Assembly (NCBI GenBank): GCA_964577555.1
Contig: CAZNZM010000001.1
Span: forward strand, 117,278-149,277
Reading direction: 5' to 3'
Length of the DNA: 32,000 nucleotides
Source of the DNA: an uncultured archaeon
GTDB lineage: Archaea; Iainarchaeota; Iainarchaeia; Iainarchaeales; Iainarchaeaceae
Below are positions 1 through 10,769 of the stretch, piece by piece; the first letter of the stretch is position 1, and the number at the start of each line of letters is the position of its first letter. Below the pieces are notes generated by a model. That model was given only the letters and a program-made list of their open reading frames with translations, was not told where the DNA came from and did not search any database. Position numbers and translations under genes: made by a program.

Positions 1-2
1 AA

Positions 3-596
3 TCAAAACAAGTTGGATCGGAAAAAATAGTTTATTTGGCAAACAAAAATTCAGGAAATTTTGAAATAGGGGAAAAAATAATATTCAACGTCAAAGCTGA
101 ATATGAAAACACAGAACCGGTAATAACTGATAATATTTACGCGGAAATAAAATCAAAGCCGATACAGCTAAAAGCAATAGATAAAGGATTATATGAGGGC
201 GAATACTTAGTAGGCGAAAAAGATGAAGGAACACTGCCTGTAAAAATATATTTAGACGACGGCTATGGCAACCTCGTTGAAGAAAAATTTGAATTAACAA
301 TAACCGGAATTACATTAACAAGTTGGCTCCTTCAAAACAGTTTATTAGTAGCAATATTAGGAACAATTGCATTAATTTTGATTTGGCACGGATTTTTGTT
401 TATTGAACACAAAAACAAAATAAACGAACTAAAAAAAAGAGAAGCTGAAATAATTACGGAAATAAAAAACCTTCAAACAGAATATTTCATAAATGGAAAA
501 ATAGACAAAAACGTTTATACAAAAAAAATGACTCATTTGGAACCGGAATTAAAAAAAATAAGGCAAGAAATAAGTGCTGCACAAAAAAACGGATAA
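3..596 (+). CDS. Single-pass membrane protein, 5' end probably cut by the window edge (beta-rich N-terminal domain, one TM helix, cytoplasmic coiled-coil tail)
   Basis: The frame is open from position 3; the ORF track starts at a TTG at 36. Hydrophobic helix LLVAILGTIALILIWHGFLFI. KE-rich C-terminal tail with a GKIDKNVYTKKM segment reminiscent of SHOCT-type short C-terminal domains. TAA stop at 594-596. Confidence 0.5.
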   Translation, partial: SKQVGSEKIVYLANKNSGNFEIGEKIIFNVKAEYENTEPVITDNIYAEIKSKPIQLKAIDKGLYEGEYLVGEKDEGTLPVKIYLDDGYGNLVEEKFELTITGITLTSWLLQNSLLVAILGTIALILIWHGFLFIEHKNKINELKKREAEIITEIKNLQTEYFINGKIDKNVYTKKMTHLEPELKKIRQEISAAQKNG

Positions 597-690
597 AAAT
601 ACCAAAAGACAAAGAGCGATATGTTTTTTAGCGGTAATAACTACGTTATTTGGAAACAATAAATGCCTTAATCGACTCTATGGTGTAAAA

Positions 691-3000
691 ATGGATGAAA
701 ATAAAAGCAAAAACGAGCCACAAGAAAAAAAGCCGATTTTAGCCATATTCTCAAAATTGATTGGCACTGAAAAAGAAAAGGAAAAACAAATAGAAAACAA
801 AGAAATACAAACATTTATACCTGAATTGAAAACTGACGGAAAAGGCAAGGTAAACGAAATAATAGTGGAATCGCCTTTAGATGAAAAAAATCCAGTCAAG
901 AAAAACAAAGAAAAAAATAATGTGGAAGAAGAAGGCGGAGACCAAAAAGAAATAAAAGATGCAATTGAAGAAACAAAATTCATAAAAAATACTGCAAAAC
1001 TGCTTGATGAAAAGACTGATAAAAGCAACTATAATGAAACTGAAAAGACCGAATATGAAACAAATGGCAATTCGAAAGTATCTTTGCTAATTCTTGAAAA
1101 CCGAAATTACGATAAGGGGATTTCAATACTTTTAAAAAAAATGGCTTATGATTATGAAAAAAACATGTACGTTGCACTAAACGAAACCATAGAAGAAATG
1201 GAAAACAGGTTTTATGAAGAAAAAATAGAGAAAAAAAAATTTGTTATAATAGATACTCTGACTTTAGGATCAAAAAACGTCAATCAAAAAAAATATGAAA
1301 ATTGCATTTTTGTAGCAAGCCCTAATGCACTCATAGAATTAAGTCTTGCAATAATGCAAGGAATAAATAATTGGAAAGCAAAAGCCATTCTTTTTGACTC
1401 GATTTCAACCCTTTTGATATATGAAAACGAAAAAACGGTTTCAAGATTTGTGCGCTCGATAATTGGAAAAATAAGGGCTTCCGGAATAGACGCTTATTTC
1501 ACCGTATTGGCCGGAGATTCAAAAAAAGACGTTATAAAAGAATTGAGACCATTTTTTGACAAAGCAAACAATCTTGAAGAATTTGTTTCAGAGCAATTTC
1601 CCGGATTTGAAATAGAATCAATAAAAAGACAAAAATGGTACGATGAAGATGAAGAATTGGAAAATTATAAAACTGCACGCCTTAATTCGGAACCGGCAAT
1701 ATTCATGGCTGAAATACAGGCTTTGAAAAGAAAAATCAAGGATTCACAAAAAAACAATTTGATGTGGAAAGATTTGAATTATTTAAAAGAAAAATTGGAA
1801 AAGCTGGAAGGCATGAAAGAAAAAATAAACAAAATTGAAGGATTGACAGAAAATGAAAAAAATAAATACAAAGAAATTAGTGCAACTCTTGAAGAAGTAA
1901 AGGAAAAATTAAAAAAAATGGAAACGGTTTCAAAACTTGAAGAAGAAATCAAAGAGGTTTACAGAAAAATAGAGGAAATAGATGAAAAAGCGCAATTGAG
2001 CGCAGAACTGAGAAAAAATATTGAAGCGAAAAAAGAATCGGAATTGAATGAATCAATACAAGAAATGAAAGTCAAACTGAAAAATCTTGAAGGAGTGACA
2101 TCTCTTGAACAAGAAGTAAAAGCATTGAACAACATGGTGCTTGAATTGGAATCAAAACTTCGAAAGGAAACGAAAGAGGAAATTGAAGCGCAAACTGAAG
2201 CAATGAAAGAATTTTCAAGGCAAATTGATGACCTTTCAAAAAGGATTTCCGAAGCGCAAAAAAGCGACAAATACGAAGAAATGGCTCAAAATTTTGGAAA
2301 GGAATTGGAAGCAATAAAAAGCGAAATAGACGAAATGGAAAAAAATAATGCACTTGTAAGGGAAAAAGAACATGAGGAAAAAGAAAAAGTAAAGCAAATG
2401 ATTGATGAAGTGAAAACCAAACTCGCAGGGCTCGAAAAGATAAGCGAAATTGAACAACACATGACTGAATTATACAAAAAAATAGAGGAACACGATGAAA
2501 AGGCGCAACTTGGCGAAGAAATTAAAAAAACAATTGAATCGCAAAAAACAAATGAAATGAAACAAGCAATTGAAGAAATGAAAAAAAATTTTTTGGCACA
2601 GGAAGAAAATATTTCGTTGTTTTCAAAACAAATTGATGCTTTAAGGCAAAAACTTGAAGAAACCCAGGCAACAAACTTGGAAAAAGACGAGTTGGACAGA
2701 AAATTATTAGAACATATTTCTGCAATGGAAAAACACATTTCAAGTTTGGGAAAACGGCTTGAGGCTGCAGAACTTCAAAAAGCTTTGGCAGAAAGCGAAG
2801 ACGAATATAAGAAAATATCAGAAGAAAGGGAGCAAGTTGAAATGGCTTTGAAAAGAATGACTGATGAAGAAGGTTATACTAAGGAAAAGCTTGCCAAACT
2901 TAACAACCAGCTTGAAAAAATTTCGGAAATTGAAAAGGAAATCAACGAAAAAAGAAAGGAAATGCAAGAAAGACTCAAAAAACTTAAACAAGACGAATGA
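691..3000 (+). CDS. Large protein: K/E-rich N-terminus, P-loop-less RecA/KaiC-like domain, ~440-aa C-terminal coiled coil
   Basis: ORF 574-3000. The ATG at 691 (MDENKSKNE) is the more plausible start. The central region (YVALNETIEEME, KKFVIIDTLT, AILFDSISTLLIYENEKTVSRFVRSIIGKIR) aligns with the product of 5247-5840 and has a Walker-B-like hhhhD strand but no GxxGxGKT. The rest is continuous E/K/L heptad sequence with internal repeats. Confidence 0.7.
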   Translation: MDENKSKNEPQEKKPILAIFSKLIGTEKEKEKQIENKEIQTFIPELKTDGKGKVNEIIVESPLDEKNPVKKNKEKNNVEEEGGDQKEIKDAIEETKFIKNTAKLLDEKTDKSNYNETEKTEYETNGNSKVSLLILENRNYDKGISILLKKMAYDYEKNMYVALNETIEEMENRFYEEKIEKKKFVIIDTLTLGSKNVNQKKYENCIFVASPNALIELSLAIMQGINNWKAKAILFDSISTLLIYENEKTVSRFVRSIIGKIRASGIDAYFTVLAGDSKKDVIKELRPFFDKANNLEEFVSEQFPGFEIESIKRQKWYDEDEELENYKTARLNSEPAIFMAEIQALKRKIKDSQKNNLMWKDLNYLKEKLEKLEGMKEKINKIEGLTENEKNKYKEISATLEEVKEKLKKMETVSKLEEEIKEVYRKIEEIDEKAQLSAELRKNIEAKKESELNESIQEMKVKLKNLEGVTSLEQEVKALNNMVLELESKLRKETKEEIEAQTEAMKEFSRQIDDLSKRISEAQKSDKYEEMAQNFGKELEAIKSEIDEMEKNNALVREKEHEEKEKVKQMIDEVKTKLAGLEKISEIEQHMTELYKKIEEHDEKAQLGEEIKKTIESQKTNEMKQAIEEMKKNFLAQEENISLFSKQIDALRQKLEETQATNLEKDELDRKLLEHISAMEKHISSLGKRLEAAELQKALAESEDEYKKISEEREQVEMALKRMTDEEGYTKEKLAKLNNQLEKISEIEKEINEKRKEMQERLKKLKQDE

Positions 3001-3371
3001 AACAAAAACAAATCAAAAATTAAAAAATTGTCAAAAAAATGGTTGGCAAAATAAATTCAAAAAAAAACTGGCTCAAAAAAAAACAAGCCACAAAAAAAAT
3101 AGCTCACAAAAAAAACAACCAACAAAAAAAATAACAAAAAAAAACGGCTGATAAAAAAAAATCTTTACAAAAAAAAAACAAAAATTGTCTAAAAAAAAGG
3201 CTCACAAAAAAAATTAAAAAAAGTTCAAAAAAAAATCATGAAAAAAAATTGTCAAAAAAAACTGGCTCAAAAAAAAACAAAATTGGCTCGCAAAAAAAAA
3301 CCAAGCCACAAAAAAAATAGCTCACAAAAAAACAAATTAAAAAAAACGACTTAAAAAAATGTCAAAAAAAA
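3001..3371 (+). repeat. A-run/GC-island mosaic repeat region, copy A (A-rich on + strand)
   Basis: A7-11 runs every ~10-23 nt, separated by islands such as GGCTCA, AGCCAC, AGCTCAC, GGCTCGC and TGTC. It shares blocks with 20152-20862 and 30040-30690. It lies between two convergent stop codons. Confidence 0.85.
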
Positions 3372-4433
3372 TCAATCCTCGTAGAAAAATTCCTGATCTG
3401 CGTAAATTTCAAACCCTTTTGATGTTATTTTATATGGAACAAGCCTCTTTGAGTGCCCAGTGCCACGCATTTTTATTATTTCCAAAACATTTTCCCGCCT
3501 ATTGTGAGTTTTGAGGCTGTAAAGTGCTACAAGGCTGTCAGCAAGCAATTCATGCATGCCTGTCAAATGATAATTTCCTGGAACCCTTGCAGTTTCATCT
3601 ATTATTATATTCAAGGCACCAAAACTTGAAATTGTTTCAAAAAGTTTAGAAGTGTATTGCCTGAAACCGTTTGTATTTTCTGCAAATGCTAAAGAGAGAG
3701 AAGAAAGGCTGTCAAAAACCAACCTGTCAGGCTTGAAAGGCAAATCAAAAAGAAATGGCAATTTAAATTGTTCAGGCGGAATATAAAGGTCGCCTTTTTC
3801 GCTTGTTAAATTGGCTTCCATTGCCCTTACTATGGCAAGCGGGTCTATTTTGTGCATGGAAATAAAACCTTTGTTTTCAAGAGAAACCAAATCCCAACCA
3901 AAAGAAGCAGCCATATTTTCTTTGACCTTTTCAGGAGACTCTTCAAGCGAAATATAAATACATTTTTCACCTTTTACTTTCGCAGCAGTATAAATTGATT
4001 GTATTGCAAATGTTGTTTTTCCGGTTCCTGAACTTCCAGAAAGCAACATGATGTCGCCACGTTTCAAACCTCCTTTTTCTATCAATCTGTCAAAATCACT
4101 GACAAAAACAGGAGAAATTTTTCTGAATTCGGAAAGACCTATGCGATTGTATGGTTTTGACAGAGAAACGCCTATTTCTTGAGACTGGGTTCCGTAAATA
4201 GAACCTTGCGTGTTGGCTGATGAAATAGATTCTTTCTCTACAACACCTTCTGGCAGCTCCATTTTTTTGCTCTCTGGTGAATTTGCCAGGTTTTTTGCTT
4301 CTTCAACAATTGACTTGGCTTCTTCATAAGAAAGCCCCACTTCTGTCATGCTTTTTATGGCCTCATCTTCGGAGGTTCCTGATTGAAGAAGCCTTTTAGT
4401 GGCATCCACAAGCCTGGCTTTGTTTTCCACCAT
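3372..4433 (-). CDS. KaiC-like RecA-superfamily ATPase with ~100-aa N-terminal helical extension
   Basis: Walker A GSSGTGKT, KaiC-family ISLEES and FGWDL motifs, Walker B LVFDSLSSL. N-terminal SGTSEDEAIKSMTEVGLSYEEAKSIVEEAK helical segment. ATG at 4433. Confidence 0.85.
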   Translation of the reverse strand: MVENKARLVDATKRLLQSGTSEDEAIKSMTEVGLSYEEAKSIVEEAKNLANSPESKKMELPEGVVEKESISSANTQGSIYGTQSQEIGVSLSKPYNRIGLSEFRKISPVFVSDFDRLIEKGGLKRGDIMLLSGSSGTGKTTFAIQSIYTAAKVKGEKCIYISLEESPEKVKENMAASFGWDLVSLENKGFISMHKIDPLAIVRAMEANLTSEKGDLYIPPEQFKLPFLFDLPFKPDRLVFDSLSSLSLAFAENTNGFRQYTSKLFETISSFGALNIIIDETARVPGNYHLTGMHELLADSLVALYSLKTHNRRENVLEIIKMRGTGHSKRLVPYKITSKGFEIYADQEFFYED

Positions 4434-4445
4434 TAAATACCACTC

Positions 4446-4461
4446 ATGTTTAATAAAACAT
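4446..4461. promoter_or_regulatory. 16-bp palindrome ATGTTTAATAAAACAT in the 82-bp divergent spacer between the two KaiC-like ATPase genes (candidate operator)
   Basis: Perfect 6-bp arms around a 4-bp centre, seen directly. The AT-rich background makes a chance occurrence plausible. Confidence 0.25.
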
Positions 4462-4515
4462 TCAAATTACTAAACAATAAGTATAATTAACCGATATAAA
4501 TGTCTTTAGATACAT

Positions 4516-5247
4516 ATGCACGAACACGAAACCGCAAAAACAAGTGAAAGAGTGGAATTTGAAAGAGTAAAAACCGGGGTTCAAGGCTTGGATGAAATGA
4601 TGGGGGGCGGCATACCGAAAGGGAATTTGGTTGTATTGAGTGGTGACCCAGGTAGCGGCAAAACAGTTCTTTGCTGGCAATACTTGTATTACGGCATCAC
4701 CCAATTCAATGAAAACGCAGTGTATATTTCATTGGAAGAAACTGAAGAAACCATATTTGAAGGTGCAAAAGAATTTGGTTGGGACTTAAAAAAGCTGGTT
4801 GATGAAGGAAAATTATCAATAATAACTATAGAATTGTACGACTTCGAAAGGCTCAAAGCCGCAATTGAAGACAATGTCAAGGCAAGAAAAGCAAAAAGAG
4901 TTGTTATTGATCCGGGAGTCATATTCAGATTGTTTTTTGAAAGAGAATTGGATGCAAGAAAAAGAATAGTTTCCCTTGGAAAAATGCTTAAAACGCTTGG
5001 CGTGACTACAATAATAACAAACGAATTGACTTTGGAAAAAGAATCTTCACTTTATGGTTTGGAAGAATACGTTGCTGACGGAGTAATACTTTTATTTCAT
5101 ACAAGAATAAAAAACAGGTTCGTAAGAAGCATAGCAGTGCTAAAAATGAGGAATACTGAAATAACAGAAAGTCTAAAACCGGTAAAAATTGACAACAACG
5201 GAATAAAAGTGCTTTCAAGAGCCGAACTTTTTGACGAGGTGGATTAA
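4516..5247 (+). CDS. KaiC-like RecA-superfamily ATPase (single domain)
   Basis: GLDEMMGGGIPKGNLVVLSGDPGSGKT (Walker A), ISLEETEETI, FGWDL, Walker B RVVIDPG. The size (243 aa) is typical of archaeal single-domain KaiC homologues. Confidence 0.9.
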   Translation: MHEHETAKTSERVEFERVKTGVQGLDEMMGGGIPKGNLVVLSGDPGSGKTVLCWQYLYYGITQFNENAVYISLEETEETIFEGAKEFGWDLKKLVDEGKLSIITIELYDFERLKAAIEDNVKARKAKRVVIDPGVIFRLFFERELDARKRIVSLGKMLKTLGVTTIITNELTLEKESSLYGLEEYVADGVILLFHTRIKNRFVRSIAVLKMRNTEITESLKPVKIDNNGIKVLSRAELFDEVD

Positions 5248-5840
5248 TGGCAGACGAATGGAGTGAAGAAAAAATAATTGCTGCTCTTGACAAGAACAAG
5301 CAAATAGAAGCAAAAGCAATGGAAATCTTAAAAGAATTCAAATCATCGTTCAGCATACTTTTAATTTTGAAACCAGAATCGTACAAACCAATAAAAAATT
5401 CTTTTTTAAATGCCGCAAATACTAAATGGGAGAAAACAATATTTGTAAGCATTAATGAAACTGCTGAAAAAATTTTGGAAAAAACGGACAAAAAATCGCA
5501 AAAAAAAATTTTTGTAATTGATATGTTTTCAGGCAAAAGTTCTTCAAACGAAAATTATGCAAAATTGGATTCCGCAACACAACTTGCAGAATGCCTTGAG
5601 CTAATAGAAAACAACTTATCAAAAAACAATGAAAAACAAAATTATGTAATAATAATTGATTCAATATCGTCATTATTGCTCTACAATAACGCGGAAGCGG
5701 TAAAAAAATTCTTGCATTTAATGATTTCAAAAAGCCAAAGTTTAAAGGTTTCGGTGATTCTTTTTGGAATAGACGAAAAGGATTATGATGGTTTTTATAA
5801 AATAGTCAGCCAATTTGTTGATTCAACTGTTGTAATTTAA
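5247..5840 (+). CDS. P-loop-less KaiC/RecA-like domain protein, paralogous to the central domain of the 691-3000 product
   Basis: Its start overlaps the upstream stop (TAATG). FVSINETAEKI, KIFVIDMFS and YVIIIDSISSLLLYNNAEAVKKFLHLMISK align with the 808-aa ORF. There is no GxxGxGK[ST]. Confidence 0.7.
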   Translation: MADEWSEEKIIAALDKNKQIEAKAMEILKEFKSSFSILLILKPESYKPIKNSFLNAANTKWEKTIFVSINETAEKILEKTDKKSQKKIFVIDMFSGKSSSNENYAKLDSATQLAECLELIENNLSKNNEKQNYVIIIDSISSLLLYNNAEAVKKFLHLMISKSQSLKVSVILFGIDEKDYDGFYKIVSQFVDSTVVI

Positions 5841-5916
5841 CATTGGCACTTAAGCATGAGCAAATTTAAAAAAACAATCAAGCAAAGCATAAAGAATAGT
5901 CACAAAAGGCAAAAAT

Positions 5917-7305
5917 ATGAATGCATATGAAAAACTTTCCGAGCTTTCAGAAAAAGTCAAAGCACTGGACGATTTTGTTGTAGTGCATCATTATGATGCG
6001 GACGGTTGCAGTGCAGGAGCAATAATGTTCAAGGCTTTATCAAGGCTTGGAAAATCAGTAAAAAAAATTTGGATAAAACAACTTTACAAAGAAACAATAA
6101 ACGAAATAAAAGGACTTGGCAAAAATTATGTTTTTGTGGATTTTGGGTCCGGACAATTGTCATATCTTAAGGAAGAATTCGGAGAAAATTTGTTTGTATT
6201 TGACCATCATGAACGCACAAATGTGCAACACCCTAACCATTTCTCGCCGTTTGATTATGGAATTAATGGCGGAAATGAAATAAGCGCTTCAGGAATATCT
6301 TACTTGTTTGCAGAAACACTGGATAAAAAAAATATAGATCTAATACAACTAGCAATTGTTGGGGCTGTTGGCGACGTTCAGGATTTCAAAGGAAAATTAA
6401 TAGGCTTGAATAGTGAACTAGCAAAGAAAGGAGTAAATGCAGGAATTGTAAAAATAGAAAACGACCTAAAATTGTACGGCAGAATAACAAGACCTTTGAT
6501 TCAATTCCTTGAATTCAGTACCTCGCCAATAATTCCTGAAATAACGGCAAACCAGGAAAACGCAAGAAAGTTTTTACAGGAAAACGGAATAGAACTTAAA
6601 GACGGGGACAGATGGAGAACTTATTCGGATTTGAGCTTTGAAGAAAAAAAAGAATTGGCAACAGCTTTAATATTGCATTTGCAAAAACATAACTTGCCAG
6701 AATGGAAAATATCCGAATTGTTCGGCGAAGTATATCTTTTTCCAAGCGAAGACAAAAAAAGCCCGCTTTACGAGGCAAAAGAATTTTCAACTCTTTGCAA
6801 TGCCTGCGGAAGGCATGGAATGGCTGACATTGCAATAGAAGTATGCTTGGGCGACAGAGGGAGCAATTATTCCATGGCGATTGACTTGATGGCTGAACAT
6901 AGAAGACAATTAAGGGAAGGGATAGACTTTGTTGCAAAAAACGGAATTTCGGAAGAAAAAGAATTTTATTGGTTTGACGCTGGTGAAAAAATTTCTGAGT
7001 CAATCATTGGAATAGTTGCTGGAATGCTTTATGGCTCGGGAATTATTGAAACAAGAAAACCTATTATTGCAATAGCGCATAATAAAGACGGGTATTTAAA
7101 AATTAGCGGCAGGGCTACAAACGAACTAGTTGGAATGGGTTTAAACCTTGGAATAGCATTCAGAAAAAGTTGTGAAAAACTAGGAGAAGGGAACGAAGGA
7201 GGGGGGCACGCAATAGCCGCCGGTTTGAAAATAAAAAAAGAAAAACTCAACGAATTTCTACAAAACCTTAACGAAATAATAAGCGAACAATACACAAAGA
7301 GCTGA
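5917..7305 (+). CDS. recJ: RecJ-like DHH-family phosphoesterase/nuclease (archaeal GAN/RecJ-Cdc45 type)
   Basis: DHH motifs HHYDADG, VFVDFGSG, FVFDHH and GAVGDVQD. DHHA1 motif GGGHAIAAG near the C-terminus. 462 aa. Confidence 0.85.
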   Translation: MNAYEKLSELSEKVKALDDFVVVHHYDADGCSAGAIMFKALSRLGKSVKKIWIKQLYKETINEIKGLGKNYVFVDFGSGQLSYLKEEFGENLFVFDHHERTNVQHPNHFSPFDYGINGGNEISASGISYLFAETLDKKNIDLIQLAIVGAVGDVQDFKGKLIGLNSELAKKGVNAGIVKIENDLKLYGRITRPLIQFLEFSTSPIIPEITANQENARKFLQENGIELKDGDRWRTYSDLSFEEKKELATALILHLQKHNLPEWKISELFGEVYLFPSEDKKSPLYEAKEFSTLCNACGRHGMADIAIEVCLGDRGSNYSMAIDLMAEHRRQLREGIDFVAKNGISEEKEFYWFDAGEKISESIIGIVAGMLYGSGIIETRKPIIAIAHNKDGYLKISGRATNELVGMGLNLGIAFRKSCEKLGEGNEGGGHAIAAGLKIKKEKLNEFLQNLNEIISEQYTKS

Positions 7306-7579
7306 ATTGCAACAACTTGCAGTTAAAGTTTCAGGCGAATCCCAAATAAAGATAATGCTAATGCAGATAAATTATCACGTCAAAAAGCAACTTATCAGCG
7401 ATTCATTTTTACAATAATGGAAGCCAGACAACAAGGCTTCGGTCAAATCCTCATGAAGAAATGAATATGAAATTGTCATCACATTTTCAGTAGTTGGAAA
7501 TTGACTATGGTTAAATCAAAAATAATTTGACTGGAAAAGACAATAAATATTATATAACCAAAAGTCGTTATTAATAAAC

Positions 7580-8104
7580 ATGCAAAAAAATGAAAAAAAA
7601 CTGGCACTAATCTGTGTTTTGTTGGTTTTGTCGGCATTGGTTACTTTGGCTTTGGAAACTTTGCCAAACTTGGACAATTATTTTGACAACAACAACCATT
7701 TAAAAAAAGAAATTCTTTCTACAATAAACGAACAAACAAGCAAAGTTCCAAATGAATTGATTTTAATTTTCGCCAACAAAAAAATCAACGTCTACATAAC
7801 CTCGGATGAGGGTTTGGTGAAAGAATTTTATGCCAAGACTAACAACAAAACTTTTGACGAAATTTCAAAAGGTGCCAGAATGGACGCTGATTTGGAAGTT
7901 AGGTTGAACGAAGCAACTCTTTTAAAAATTTATAATTCTAAAGAGCCGATTAGCGAATTAGTCAAGTCTATTTCATCTGGCGAAATAAAGTATAATGGCA
8001 TAACTAACGAAGGCAAAATCAACAGCACTACAATAAATATTGTGGCTGGTTTATTGTCATTCATTGACGAGATCAAAAATTTTATTTTTGGGTTTTTCAA
8101 ATAA
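7580..8104 (+). CDS. Membrane-anchored or secreted hypothetical protein
   Basis: N-terminal signal-anchor KKLALICVLLVLSALVTLALE and a second C-terminal hydrophobic stretch. The middle part has a weak SCP2-like feel (LLKIYNSKEPISELVKSISSGEIKYNG) that is not strong enough to call. Confidence 0.55.
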   Translation: MQKNEKKLALICVLLVLSALVTLALETLPNLDNYFDNNNHLKKEILSTINEQTSKVPNELILIFANKKINVYITSDEGLVKEFYAKTNNKTFDEISKGARMDADLEVRLNEATLLKIYNSKEPISELVKSISSGEIKYNGITNEGKINSTTINIVAGLLSFIDEIKNFIFGFFK

Positions 8105-8117
8105 ACTTAATTGAAAA

Positions 8118-10769
8118 TCAATTTTTTTTCTTTTTTTCCGTTTTTTCTTTTATAGATGCTTGCGCTGCAGACAACCTTGCAATTGGAACCCTATAAGGCG
8201 AACATGAAACATTATCAAGACCTATCAAGTGGCAAAATTCAATAGAGTTAGGGTCCCCGCCGTGTTCGCCGCAAATCCCTATATTTATTTTTTTATTAAC
8301 CGCTTTTGCGTTGTCAACACACATTTTCATTAGCACTCCTACTCCTTGGCGGTCAATTGAAACAAACGGATCTGTTTCAAAAATTCCTTTTTCCAAATAA
8401 TGCTTGATGAATTTGCCTGCATCATCCCTTGAAAACCCTAAGGTTGTTTGTGTAAGATCGTTTGTGCCAAATGAAAAAAACTCGGCTTCTTTAGCCAGCT
8501 CTGCAGAAACAATGCAGGCTCTCGGAACTTCAATCATTGTGCCTATTTTGTACTTTATTTTCCCTTCTACTCCGAGTTTTTTTGCTGTTTGTTTTATTAT
8601 TTCCTTTTGGTCCCTGAATTCATTTATATTACCCACTAATGGTATTTCTATTTCTGGTATTGCAATTACTCCTTCTTTGGCGACGTTAAGGGCTGCTTCA
8701 AATATTGCTGTGGCCTGCATTTCCGTGATTTCAGGATATGTTATGCCGAGTCTGCAGCCCCTATGACCAAGCATTGGATTGAATTCATGAAGCGATGAAG
8801 ATATTTCTTTTACTTTCTCAACAGTTATGCCCATTTCTTTTGCAAGTACCTTCATTTCGTCTTCCTCTTTCGGCAAAAACTCGTGCAAAGGGGGGTCAAG
8901 CAATCTTATTATAACAGGGAGGCCATCCATGGCTTTGAAAATTCCTTCAAAATCCTGTCTTTGAAATGGCAACAATTTAGAAAGAGCTTTTTTTCTTTCC
9001 GATTCCGTCGTAGCGAGTATCATTTCTCTTACAGACTTTATTCTTTCGCCTTCAAAAAACATGTGTTCTGTCCTGCAAAGACCTATTCCTTGGGCTCCAT
9101 AGTTTCTTGCGACAAGAGCATCTTTAGGGGTGTCAGCATTGGTTCTTATTTCAAGCTTCCTGAAAGAATCCGCCCACTCCATTAATTCTCCAAAAGAACC
9201 AGAAAGGCCTGGTTCAACCAATGGCAATTCTCCTTTGAAAACTTCTCCGGTTGCGCCATCAATAGAAATATAATCACCTTCCCTGAATTCCAAATTCTTT
9301 TTCGGAACCGCAAATTTTCTTTCTGACTCGTGAACCCTTATATCTTCACAACCCGCTACACAAGATTTGCCCATTCCCCTGGCAACAACAGCCGCATGGG
9401 AAGTCTTGCCGCCTCTTGCAGTGAGAAAACCTTGTGAAACATGCATGCCTTCTATATCTTCCGGACTGGTTTCGGTTCTGACTAAAATTACTTTTTCGCC
9501 ATAACCAGCTAATTCTGTTGCGCGTTCTGCGGTGAAAACAACTTTCCCAACAGCAGCACCGGGCGAAGCCGCTATTCCTTTTGCAATAGGCTCAGAGTTC
9601 TTTTTCGCGTCAGGATCAAGTTGTTTATGCAAAAGCTGGTCAAGTTGTTCTGGTTTTACACGTAAAATAGCTTCTTCTTTTGTTATCAGTTTTTCTTTAA
9701 CCATGTCAACAGCAATCTTTACTGCTGCATGCGCAGTTCTTTTACCGGTTCTTGTTTGAAGCAAGTAAAGTTTTCCGTTTTCAAAAGTGAATTCAAAATC
9801 CTGCATTTCACGGTAATGCTTTTCAAGTTTGTCATAAATCTTCAGCAATTCAGCATACATTTTTGGATGGGTTTTTTTCATTTCGTCAATTGGCATAGGC
9901 GTTCTTATGCCTGCAACAACGTCTTCGCCTTGCGCATTTACCAAAAACTCGCCATAATGCACTTTTTCCCCTGTTGATGGATCCCTCGTGAAAGCAACTC
10001 CTGTGCCAGAATTTTCCCCCATATTGCCAAAAACCATTGCTTGGACATTGACTGCTGTTCCGGCATCGTTTCTCAAATTATGTATCCTGCGATAGCTTAC
10101 TGCCCTGTTTGACATCCACGAACCAAAAACAGCATTAATTCCCATTTCCAACTGCTTCATAGGTTCCGATGGAAAACCGATTTTCTTTTCTTTCAAAACT
10201 ATTTCCTTATAAGTAGCCACCAACTCCTTAAGGTCTTCAGTAGACAAATCAGTATCAAACTTAACTCCTTTTCTTTCTTTTAATTCGTGAAGCGCCTTTT
10301 CAAATTTAGCGTGCTCTATGCCCATTACAACATCGCCAAACATTTGTATAAACCGCCTGTAAGAATCCCAAGCAGCTCTTTCGTTTTTTGTTTGCTTTGC
10401 AAAAGCAATTACTGTTTCGTCGTTCATCCCGAGATTTAACACAGTATCCATCATGCCGGGCATTGAAACATAAGAACCGGAACGCACCGAAACAAACAAA
10501 GGCTTTTTTTTATCCCCGAATTTTTTCCCGGTTTTCTTTTCCAATCTTTTCATCGCCTTGGCTATTTCTTCAGCAAGCCCTTTTGGCCATTTTTTATTGT
10601 GTTTATAAAATTCCTTGCAAGCTTCAGTGGTTATGGTAAATCCGTAGGGCACTTTAAGTCCCGCATTAGTCATTTCAGCAAGCTGTGCCCCCTTGTTTCC
10701 CAAAAGAAATTGCGATTCTTCAGTATTAGGATTTTTTGATTCGTCAAACATGTACACGTACTTTGCCAT
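8118..10769 (-). CDS. ppdK: Pyruvate, phosphate dikinase
   Basis: N-terminal GNKGAQLAEM, phosphohistidine region GGKTSHAAVVARGMG, C-terminal PEP/pyruvate domain GTNDLTQ and ICGEHGGDP. ATG at 10769 is preceded by GAGGTGG. ~883 aa. Confidence 0.95.
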   Translation of the reverse strand: MAKYVYMFDESKNPNTEESQFLLGNKGAQLAEMTNAGLKVPYGFTITTEACKEFYKHNKKWPKGLAEEIAKAMKRLEKKTGKKFGDKKKPLFVSVRSGSYVSMPGMMDTVLNLGMNDETVIAFAKQTKNERAAWDSYRRFIQMFGDVVMGIEHAKFEKALHELKERKGVKFDTDLSTEDLKELVATYKEIVLKEKKIGFPSEPMKQLEMGINAVFGSWMSNRAVSYRRIHNLRNDAGTAVNVQAMVFGNMGENSGTGVAFTRDPSTGEKVHYGEFLVNAQGEDVVAGIRTPMPIDEMKKTHPKMYAELLKIYDKLEKHYREMQDFEFTFENGKLYLLQTRTGKRTAHAAVKIAVDMVKEKLITKEEAILRVKPEQLDQLLHKQLDPDAKKNSEPIAKGIAASPGAAVGKVVFTAERATELAGYGEKVILVRTETSPEDIEGMHVSQGFLTARGGKTSHAAVVARGMGKSCVAGCEDIRVHESERKFAVPKKNLEFREGDYISIDGATGEVFKGELPLVEPGLSGSFGELMEWADSFRKLEIRTNADTPKDALVARNYGAQGIGLCRTEHMFFEGERIKSVREMILATTESERKKALSKLLPFQRQDFEGIFKAMDGLPVIIRLLDPPLHEFLPKEEDEMKVLAKEMGITVEKVKEISSSLHEFNPMLGHRGCRLGITYPEITEMQATAIFEAALNVAKEGVIAIPEIEIPLVGNINEFRDQKEIIKQTAKKLGVEGKIKYKIGTMIEVPRACIVSAELAKEAEFFSFGTNDLTQTTLGFSRDDAGKFIKHYLEKGIFETDPFVSIDRQGVGVLMKMCVDNAKAVNKKINIGICGEHGGDPNSIEFCHLIGLDNVSCSPYRVPIARLSAAQASIKEKTEKKKKN

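Follow-up and report, generated by a model that had tools for sequence, protein, structure and literature searches.

The 32,000-nucleotide (nt) stretch analysed here (the window; G000:C1:117278-149277) comes from an uncultured archaeon of the Iainarchaeota, whose genome (G000) is 0.98 Mb in size and 95.5% complete. At its start lie four genes related to KaiC, designated A to D: B and C encode ATPases, and A and D encode domains of the class termed inactivated KaiC (iKaiC). A gene for a surface protein, U, precedes A. The genes and their parts, in coordinates of the window and with protein lengths in amino acids (aa), are as follows.

3-596, plus strand: U, 3' part of the gene (full gene G000:C1:116370-117873, 593 aa)
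691-3000, plus strand: A, 769 aa from the ATG, with a disordered K/E-rich N-terminus, an iKaiC domain and a ~430-aa coiled coil
814-882, plus strand: linear motif of A, FIPxLKxxGKxKVxEIIxxSPLD, in the disordered N-terminal region
1072-1590, plus strand: iKaiC domain of A, ~aa 128-300
1699-2997, plus strand: coiled coil of A, ~aa 337-769
3001-3371, no strand: spacer between the convergent genes A and B
3372-4433, minus strand: B, 353 aa, with a three-helix N-terminal head domain (NTD), a disordered linker and a KaiC ATPase domain
4284-4433, minus strand: NTD of B, aa 1-50, a three-helix, UBA-like head domain
4434-4515, no strand: divergent intergenic region between B and C, 82 bp, AT-rich
4516-5247, plus strand: C, 243 aa, a single-domain KaiC-family ATPase
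5247-5840, plus strand: D, 197 aa, a stand-alone iKaiC
5917-7305, plus strand: archaeal RecJ-family nuclease (NCBIfam RecJ_archaeal, E 3.7e-147)

The stop codon of C and the start codon of D overlap as TAATG at 5245-5249, and a Shine-Dalgarno-like GAGGTGG (5236-5242) is found 5 nt upstream; C and D are predicted to be translationally coupled. The RecJ gene is probably a neighbour rather than a member of the KaiC/iKaiC system. A preliminary description of this DNA had placed the four genes at these same positions, with the divergent spacer and the overlapping codons, and all of this agrees with the present annotation. It had also recognised two active and two P-loop-less KaiC paralogues, a likeness between the degenerate domains, the fusion of one of them to a coiled coil, an extra N-terminal helical domain on B and a membrane protein upstream. 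These observations hold up in the analysis below, as do its expectations that a degenerate domain would model as a RecA-like fold, seen for D, and that the genes would be found together in related genomes.

By family score and motifs, B and C are predicted to be true single-domain KaiC-family ATPases. Both match the Pfam family KaiC (PF06745) above its cut-off of 26.6 bits (B, E 3.4e-42, 144.8 bits; C, E 2.1e-58, 197.9 bits), and they share 29% identity. The Walker A motif of B, GSSGTGKT (4014-4037), is accompanied by SLEES, FDS and a KMRG finger, with an insert of ~40 aa ahead of Walker B; the corresponding motifs of C are GDPGSGKT (4642-4665), SLEET, IDP and KMR. Among the relatives compared, which include Candidatus Iainarchaeum, Diapherotrites, AR10 and some Micrarchaeota, Walker A is conserved in 13/13 B orthologues and 64/64 C orthologues. 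C is 69-82% identical across related families, D only 26-38%. The closest solved structures to C are KaiC CI domains (E ~1e-50 to 1e-60), and the AlphaFold2 model of B has PH0186 and KaiC CI as its best Foldseek matches. Two relatives of the same genus (L034:6250-7212 and L036:5096-6046, both minus strand) have a B with TIDE instead of SLEE, in which Asp replaces the first catalytic Glu, and these proteins are just 49% identical to B here. Because B and C are both single-domain proteins, not tandem CI/CII, and KaiB (PF07689) was not found in G000 at its 95.5% completeness, neither is a circadian KaiC; their NCBIfam circ_KaiC scores are 84 and 126 bits against a cut-off of 546.

The degenerate domains of A and D are 30% identical over 150 aa (BLASTP, E 5e-9) and belong to the described iKaiC class (DUF7504, DUF7090, DUF835). 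A passage of PMC5847659, citing Makarova, Galperin and Koonin (2017), applies the term to DUF835/MEDS. In Pfam, A matches DUF7504 (E 4e-10, 40.9 bits, cut-off 27) and DUF7090 (E 2e-4), and D matches KaiC (E 4.6e-7), Elong_Iki1 (29.1 bits, cut-off 22.5), DUF835 and, below the cut-off of 27, DUF7504 (22.1 bits). Among 19 D orthologues, DUF7504 is matched by 19/19 (E<0.01), KaiC by 18/19, and DUF7090 and DUF835 by 15/19 each. Database relatives of D carry PF24336 (under DUF7504), and a word-based database search with D returned close relatives only. A P-loop (GxxGxGK[ST]) was not found in A, in D, in any A orthologue or in the D orthologue alignment. The first catalytic Glu is replaced by Asn (VALNET in A), the Walker B-like D-S is invariant (FDSIS in A), and the degenerate chains stop short of the finger-bearing C-terminal hairpins: the domain of A is without the KxRG finger segment, and D has lost the P-loop, the first catalytic Glu and the C-terminal segment with the Lys/Arg finger. 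With P-loop and finger segment gone, such a domain is left without the loop for ATP and without the part that completes the neighbour's site in KaiC rings.

The AlphaFold2 model of D, made with 43 orthologues, has a RecA/KaiC fold at a predicted local distance difference test (pLDDT) score of 90.7. Its top Foldseek matches are PH0284, SSO2452, KaiC, FlaH (4yds) and Elp456, with 2dr3, 2w0m and 4ejs among the entries matched, and the TM-scores are ~0.6-0.67 on the length of D and 0.52-0.56 on that of single-domain targets. For the domain of A, homology to D and the KaiC-related Pfam matches suggest a KaiC-like fold as well. The whole ~1-Mb genome encodes ~8 KaiC paralogues and three dead copies. 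A third iKaiC of G000, 168 aa long (G000:C8:37997-38877; L114:4998-5878), has a stop codon that overlaps the start of a gene for a 125-aa membrane protein with predicted hydrophobic segments, and it has no adjacent KaiC ATPase.

The C-terminal part of A (residues ~337-769) is proline-free, consists of 39% E+K and shows heptad periodicity. It contains an internal duplication of ~165 aa (E 3e-15), and NCBIfam yields composition-type SMC matches only. A orthologues are 622-804 aa long in 8 related loci and 174-317 aa elsewhere, where they are without the coiled-coil extension; the coiled coil is a lineage-specific addition, as the A orthologues of some genera do without it. The motif FIPxLKxxGKxKVxEIIxxSPLD is also present in A orthologues of several other genera.

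The NTD of B is modelled by AlphaFold2 as three helices (5-17, 22-31 and 36-50; pLDDT ~82-85) followed by the disordered linker. Foldseek results for the whole B model are dominated by the KaiC domain, and the NTD has weak UBA and RuvA_C-type sequence hints; its helices 2-3 recur in tandem copies in giant Q-rich proteins that match Pfam UBA. This 48-residue domain is common to A orthologues of other genera and to other coiled-coil proteins, and it also heads short proteins encoded directly upstream of C-D in genomes without U-A-B. A here retains just a remnant of helix 1. Searched against 1.84 billion representatives, the NTD matches 237 protein clusters (E<1e-3). The majority of its carriers are 430-610 aa long, match nothing in Pfam and consist of the NTD, an acidic linker and a ~350-aa coiled coil. 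G000 has carriers at G000:C2:55672-57333 on the plus strand (L125), G000:C4:92199-92849 (L126) and G000:C5:12182-12817 (L127); one carrier of the genome (at least 554 aa) is encoded directly downstream of a MinD/ParA-like ATPase, and another (216 aa) is a tail-anchored membrane protein. B orthologues of other genera have a DFWxS...FF motif in the linker, which is absent from B here.

U is predicted to be a type I surface membrane protein: a Sec signal peptide is followed by a large ectodomain, a single transmembrane helix and, on the cytoplasmic side, a helical tail of ~60 aa. U and a second copy, U', share the conserved tail motif IKxLQxxYFxxGxIxxxxY, and an (F/Y)WLRGxD motif right after the signal peptide is common to the surface proteins of the U family (L033:7093-7200; L120:3023 and L120:6040; L121:5890 and L121:8778; L123:13112). 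Up to four such proteins of 400-1000 aa stand in a row between PMM and A in relatives, and U or U' is found upstream of A-B in every A-B locus with enough flank. A paralogous cluster elsewhere in the genome (G000:C1:67501-72876; L117:2-5377) consists of overlapping or abutting genes for a U-like protein of >1171 aa (NPCBM_assoc/DUF11, two tail motifs), a 308-aa U'-like protein and a 306-aa B-like KaiC without the NTD, and a tail-motif protein also precedes a B-like KaiC in L075. The SHOCT-like C-terminus of A orthologues was considered as a counterpart of the U tail and is no more than a lead: a hidden Markov model of the U tail had no match to A at i-E<0.05, and the Pfam SHOCT matches on A orthologues are themselves below the cut-off (19-21 bits).

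The wider context of these genes is a type IV pilus locus. In G000 the order is ATPase, TadC1, TadC2, membrane protein, pilin, coaD, coaE, PMM, U, A, B, C, D, RecJ. The pilus core (L033) matches T2SSE (E 1.1e-32) and, twice, T2SSF, the TadC family (E 1.4e-17 and 8.7e-13), and a 141-aa protein of the same locus has a prepilin-like N-terminus, KRGQSALEYLMTYGWALIV. The T2SSE ATPase, the two TadC genes and the prepilin-like gene by which an archaeal type IV pilus locus is recognised are thus all present. Compared with an archaellum operon, the neighbours are the T2SSE ATPase, two TadC and pilin-like genes, and no search was aimed at ArlF/G/C/D/E/X. The order coaD-coaE-PMM-U...-A-B-C-D is common to G000, G010, G013 and AR10, with extra U-like surface proteins in G013 and AR10; ATPase-TadC-TadC-pilin lies directly upstream in G000, G013 and AR10, and the G010 contig ends at coaD. 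The pair coaD-coaE (L033:4434-5504 = G000:C1:113433-114503), often joined by PMM, stands between the pilin and KaiC genes in many families, and this insertion belongs to the conserved synteny of the wider locus. AR10 (L021) has a second ATPase-TadC1-TadC2 set upstream of B, on the same strand and 0.67 kb away.

Of 80 related loci, most have C and D side by side in the same direction. Type IV pilus genes are found in 42 of the 53 informative loci, that is, those in which at least 4 kb upstream of the iKaiC gene or a pilus gene is visible. ATPase or TadC genes occur in 35 of the 80 loci, within 2.5 kb of the iKaiC gene in 27 of those 35, and a pilin gene alone is seen in 7/80; in 27/80 the upstream flank is shorter than 4 kb and no pilus gene is in view. 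The commonest order in Iainarchaeota-type genomes is T2SSE ATPase, TadC1, TadC2, pilin (minus strand), C, D, and this ATPase-TadC-TadC-pilin-C-D order is probably ancestral. Rearranged orders include TadC2(+) C(-) pilin(+) D(+) in at least 9 loci, C-C-D convergent with TadC2-TadC1-ATPase in L079 and L100, and ATPase-TadC-TadC followed directly by iKaiC in L097. The adjacency of C-D to pilus genes survives these independent rearrangements.

In a sample of 201 genomes of the phylum, D is present in 139. Scored in 41 relatives, which are not independent of one another and include some incomplete genomes, D and the pilus ATPase orthologue are both present in 30 and both missing in 6, the latter from six different families; 2 have D without the ATPase and 3 the ATPase without D. 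The order U-(U')-A-B, divergent from C-D, is found in ~10 related loci, including Ca. Iainarchaeum andersonii, and A and B are adjacent wherever contigs show it. The four-gene module of the preliminary description is therefore conserved as a gene set, yet it consists of two sub-modules, U(-U')-A-B and C-D, which are apart in some genomes and lie within a larger pilus super-locus. That these genes are the distal part of such a super-locus had been missed, and the view that they are assignable to no described system has to be given up: the degenerate domains are the published iKaiC class (Pfam DUF7504, DUF835), and KaiC proteins near pilus loci have already been reported (PMC4858521).

Two further features of the locus recur in relatives. 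The spacer between A and B holds long A-runs with short GC islands between them, which are T-runs on the B strand and may act as terminators; a spacer of 170-640 nt is found at this position in relatives, and an Rfam search of positions 1-9000, spacer included, gave no match. On the other side, RecJ begins 77 nt after D and is downstream of D in 22/35 informative loci. In most relatives a conserved coiled-coil-like gene of ~430 aa, without a Pfam match, stands on the opposite strand between D and RecJ (L035:7662-8939; L054:8627-9943; L064:2478-3797; and others). It was not found in G000 and is not among the phmmer matches to the A coiled coil (E<=1e-4) in the same loci. In L048, L058, L061, L064, L077 and L081 the ~430-aa gene is followed, on its own strand, by another iKaiC of 180-192 aa.

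We favour, with moderate confidence, a reading in which A to D act in the cytoplasm as accessory proteins of the type IV pilus machine encoded next to them in this DPANN archaeon, since their genes stand at the far end of a type IV pilus cluster that is conserved throughout the phylum. The module most likely controls or scaffolds this machine. In this reading, C would assemble into a ring or oligomer and dock on the ATPase that drives pilus assembly, as ArlH/FlaH does on ArlI, and D would bind to C, or to the motor itself, and serve as a non-catalytic adaptor or regulator. Being without a P-loop and a finger segment, D would tune oligomerisation or couple C to its partners. B and A may represent a family-specific second KaiC/iKaiC pair, which would link the same machinery to the U surface proteins via their conserved cytoplasmic tails, with A as a long scaffold in a role comparable to that of ArlX or ArlCDE.

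Several observations weigh against a dedicated pilus role. The pilus core and the module are 8-13 kb apart in G000, with the housekeeping genes coaD, coaE and PMM between them, and 11 loci have at least 4 kb of upstream sequence and no pilus gene, 4 of them with U-A-B inserted. The whole region, including RecJ and PPDK, is syntenic across the phylum, which makes gene order alone weak evidence. U has no Pfam, NCBIfam or PDB sequence match and no recognisable pilus-related domain. C was rejected as an ArlH orthologue, as it scores 58 bits against an NCBIfam cut-off of 215, and no G000 protein is above the NCBIfam cut-off for ArlH. Finally, KaiC proteins have diverse roles, to judge from the ~8 paralogues of this genome.

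The same synteny gives room to an alternative in which the proteins form a general KaiC signalling hub that is not dedicated to pili. Here, U would sense an external cue, such as host contact, A-B would relay it and C-D pass it on, and the adjacency to pilus genes would be inherited synteny, just as unrelated housekeeping genes in the region are equally syntenic. A passage of PMC5847659 indeed proposes iKaiC and KaiC proteins as archaeal signalling hubs. In addition, the association of U-type tails with B-type KaiCs is seen again at a site away from the pilus genes (L117), and the NTD is found on other coiled-coil proteins, one of them beside a MinD-like ATPase. This hub would leave unexplained why C-D stays beside ATPase, TadC or pilin genes through several independent rearrangements, and why D and the pilus ATPase are jointly missing in six families. 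Because the housekeeping genes are equally syntenic, we regard it as a possibility to be kept in mind, though on the unlikely side.

A more specific proposal, which we hold to be rather doubtful, keeps the pilus as target and makes U-A-B a receptor-coupled KaiC switch that, with C-D, gates the type IV pilus motor. The U tails would signal to the iKaiC coiled-coil scaffold (A) and to the head-domain KaiC ATPase (B), and U would possibly sense host-cell contact. If true, this would be transmembrane signalling built on KaiC, not on histidine kinases, in symbiotic DPANN archaea.

Pairs of an active and an inactive RecA-fold protein are also known as recombination or replication mediators, and A to D could be of the RadA-paralogue type (compare Rad55-Rad57 and the Shu complex), acting with RecJ. 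The position of RecJ after D, the resemblance of the D model to SSO2452 and the match of D to Pfam Elp5 (Elong_Iki1) would fit such a role. However, D and RecJ do not form one operon, as the ~430-aa opposite-strand gene intervenes in most relatives, and we judge the RecJ link to be local synteny. C is closest to KaiC CI domains, not to RadA or RadB, a canonical RadA-like gene is encoded elsewhere in G000 (L119), and no DNA-binding element was seen, making this explanation very unlikely. The least probable explanation is a cytoskeleton-like or membrane-remodelling assembly unrelated to pili, built from the coiled coil of A with the KaiC ATPases as remodelling motors: the length of that coiled coil (~430 aa) and the wide spread of NTD-plus-coiled-coil proteins speak for it, yet no homology to known archaeal cytoskeletal or ESCRT proteins was found in Pfam, and several genera retain the rest of the module with A orthologues that do without the coiled coil, so that from the membrane-tethered signalling or cytoskeleton-like assembly of the preliminary description a membrane-proximal signalling or scaffold role stays plausible and a purely cytoskeletal one is unlikely.

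DPANN genomes are tiny, and many of these archaea are believed to rely on contact with other cells. This ~1-Mb genome nevertheless retains its ~8 KaiC paralogues and three dead copies, and C-D are among the best conserved genes around the pilus locus. If the favoured reading, control of the type IV pilus machine by A to D, or a coupling of surface receptors to pilus assembly by these proteins is true, the locus would provide a concrete example of the long-predicted KaiC/iKaiC signalling in archaea and a handle on the regulation of DPANN attachment. The 48-residue head domain and the conserved receptor tail are specific candidate interaction elements.

A strong association of KaiC-family ATPases with archaellum loci and with the clade 2 and clade 4B loci of type IV pili has been reported by Makarova, Koonin and Albers (2016, PMC4858521); the pilus-associated families are arCOG01171, 01174 and 01175, and FlaH is KaiC-like and binds FlaI. 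The main text of that paper does not mention DPANN, Iainarchaeum or AR10, and the arrangement seen in this DPANN archaeon was not found described in the literature searched. Like the pilus-associated KaiCs, the module places a single-domain KaiC beside a T2SSE ATPase, two TadC and a pilin. What sets it apart from them is the coupling of the KaiC to a dead paralogue, along with a further KaiC/iKaiC pair, the fusion to a coiled coil and the surface proteins. With the iKaiC class (DUF835, MEDS; DUF7504/DUF7090), presumed to act as regulator or adaptor, A and D share the KaiC/RecA fold, the loss of Walker A and the encoding together with an active KaiC. Here, however, the domain makes up a protein by itself (D) or is joined to a coiled coil (A), with no REC, PAS or membrane domain as fusion partner, and it is truncated ahead of the Lys/Arg finger segment. 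ArlH (FlaH) with ArlX or ArlCDE is similar in combining a KaiC-like protein by a T2SSE-type ATPase with a polytopic membrane platform and a coiled-coil scaffold, whereas the present context is a non-archaellum pilus and the scaffold, A, has an iKaiC domain and no transmembrane segment.

More distantly, Elongator Elp4/5/6 and the Rad51-paralogue pairs (Rad55-Rad57, Csm2-Psy3) likewise use degenerate RecA-fold paralogues as non-catalytic partners, and with Elongator there is the further likeness that D scores above the Elong_Iki1 cut-off and its model matches 4ejs. Unlike these, D has its best matches among KaiC-type proteins, and its context has no link to tRNA modification or recombination. 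An identity of D with Elp5 (Iki1) was rejected, as PF10483 is matched by just 4/19 D orthologues and the neighbours are pilus and KaiC genes. The system is thus of a known kind, KaiC and iKaiC beside pilus genes, and what is new in it is the iKaiC-coiled-coil fusion, the 48-residue head domain and the tailed surface proteins that recur by B-type KaiCs.

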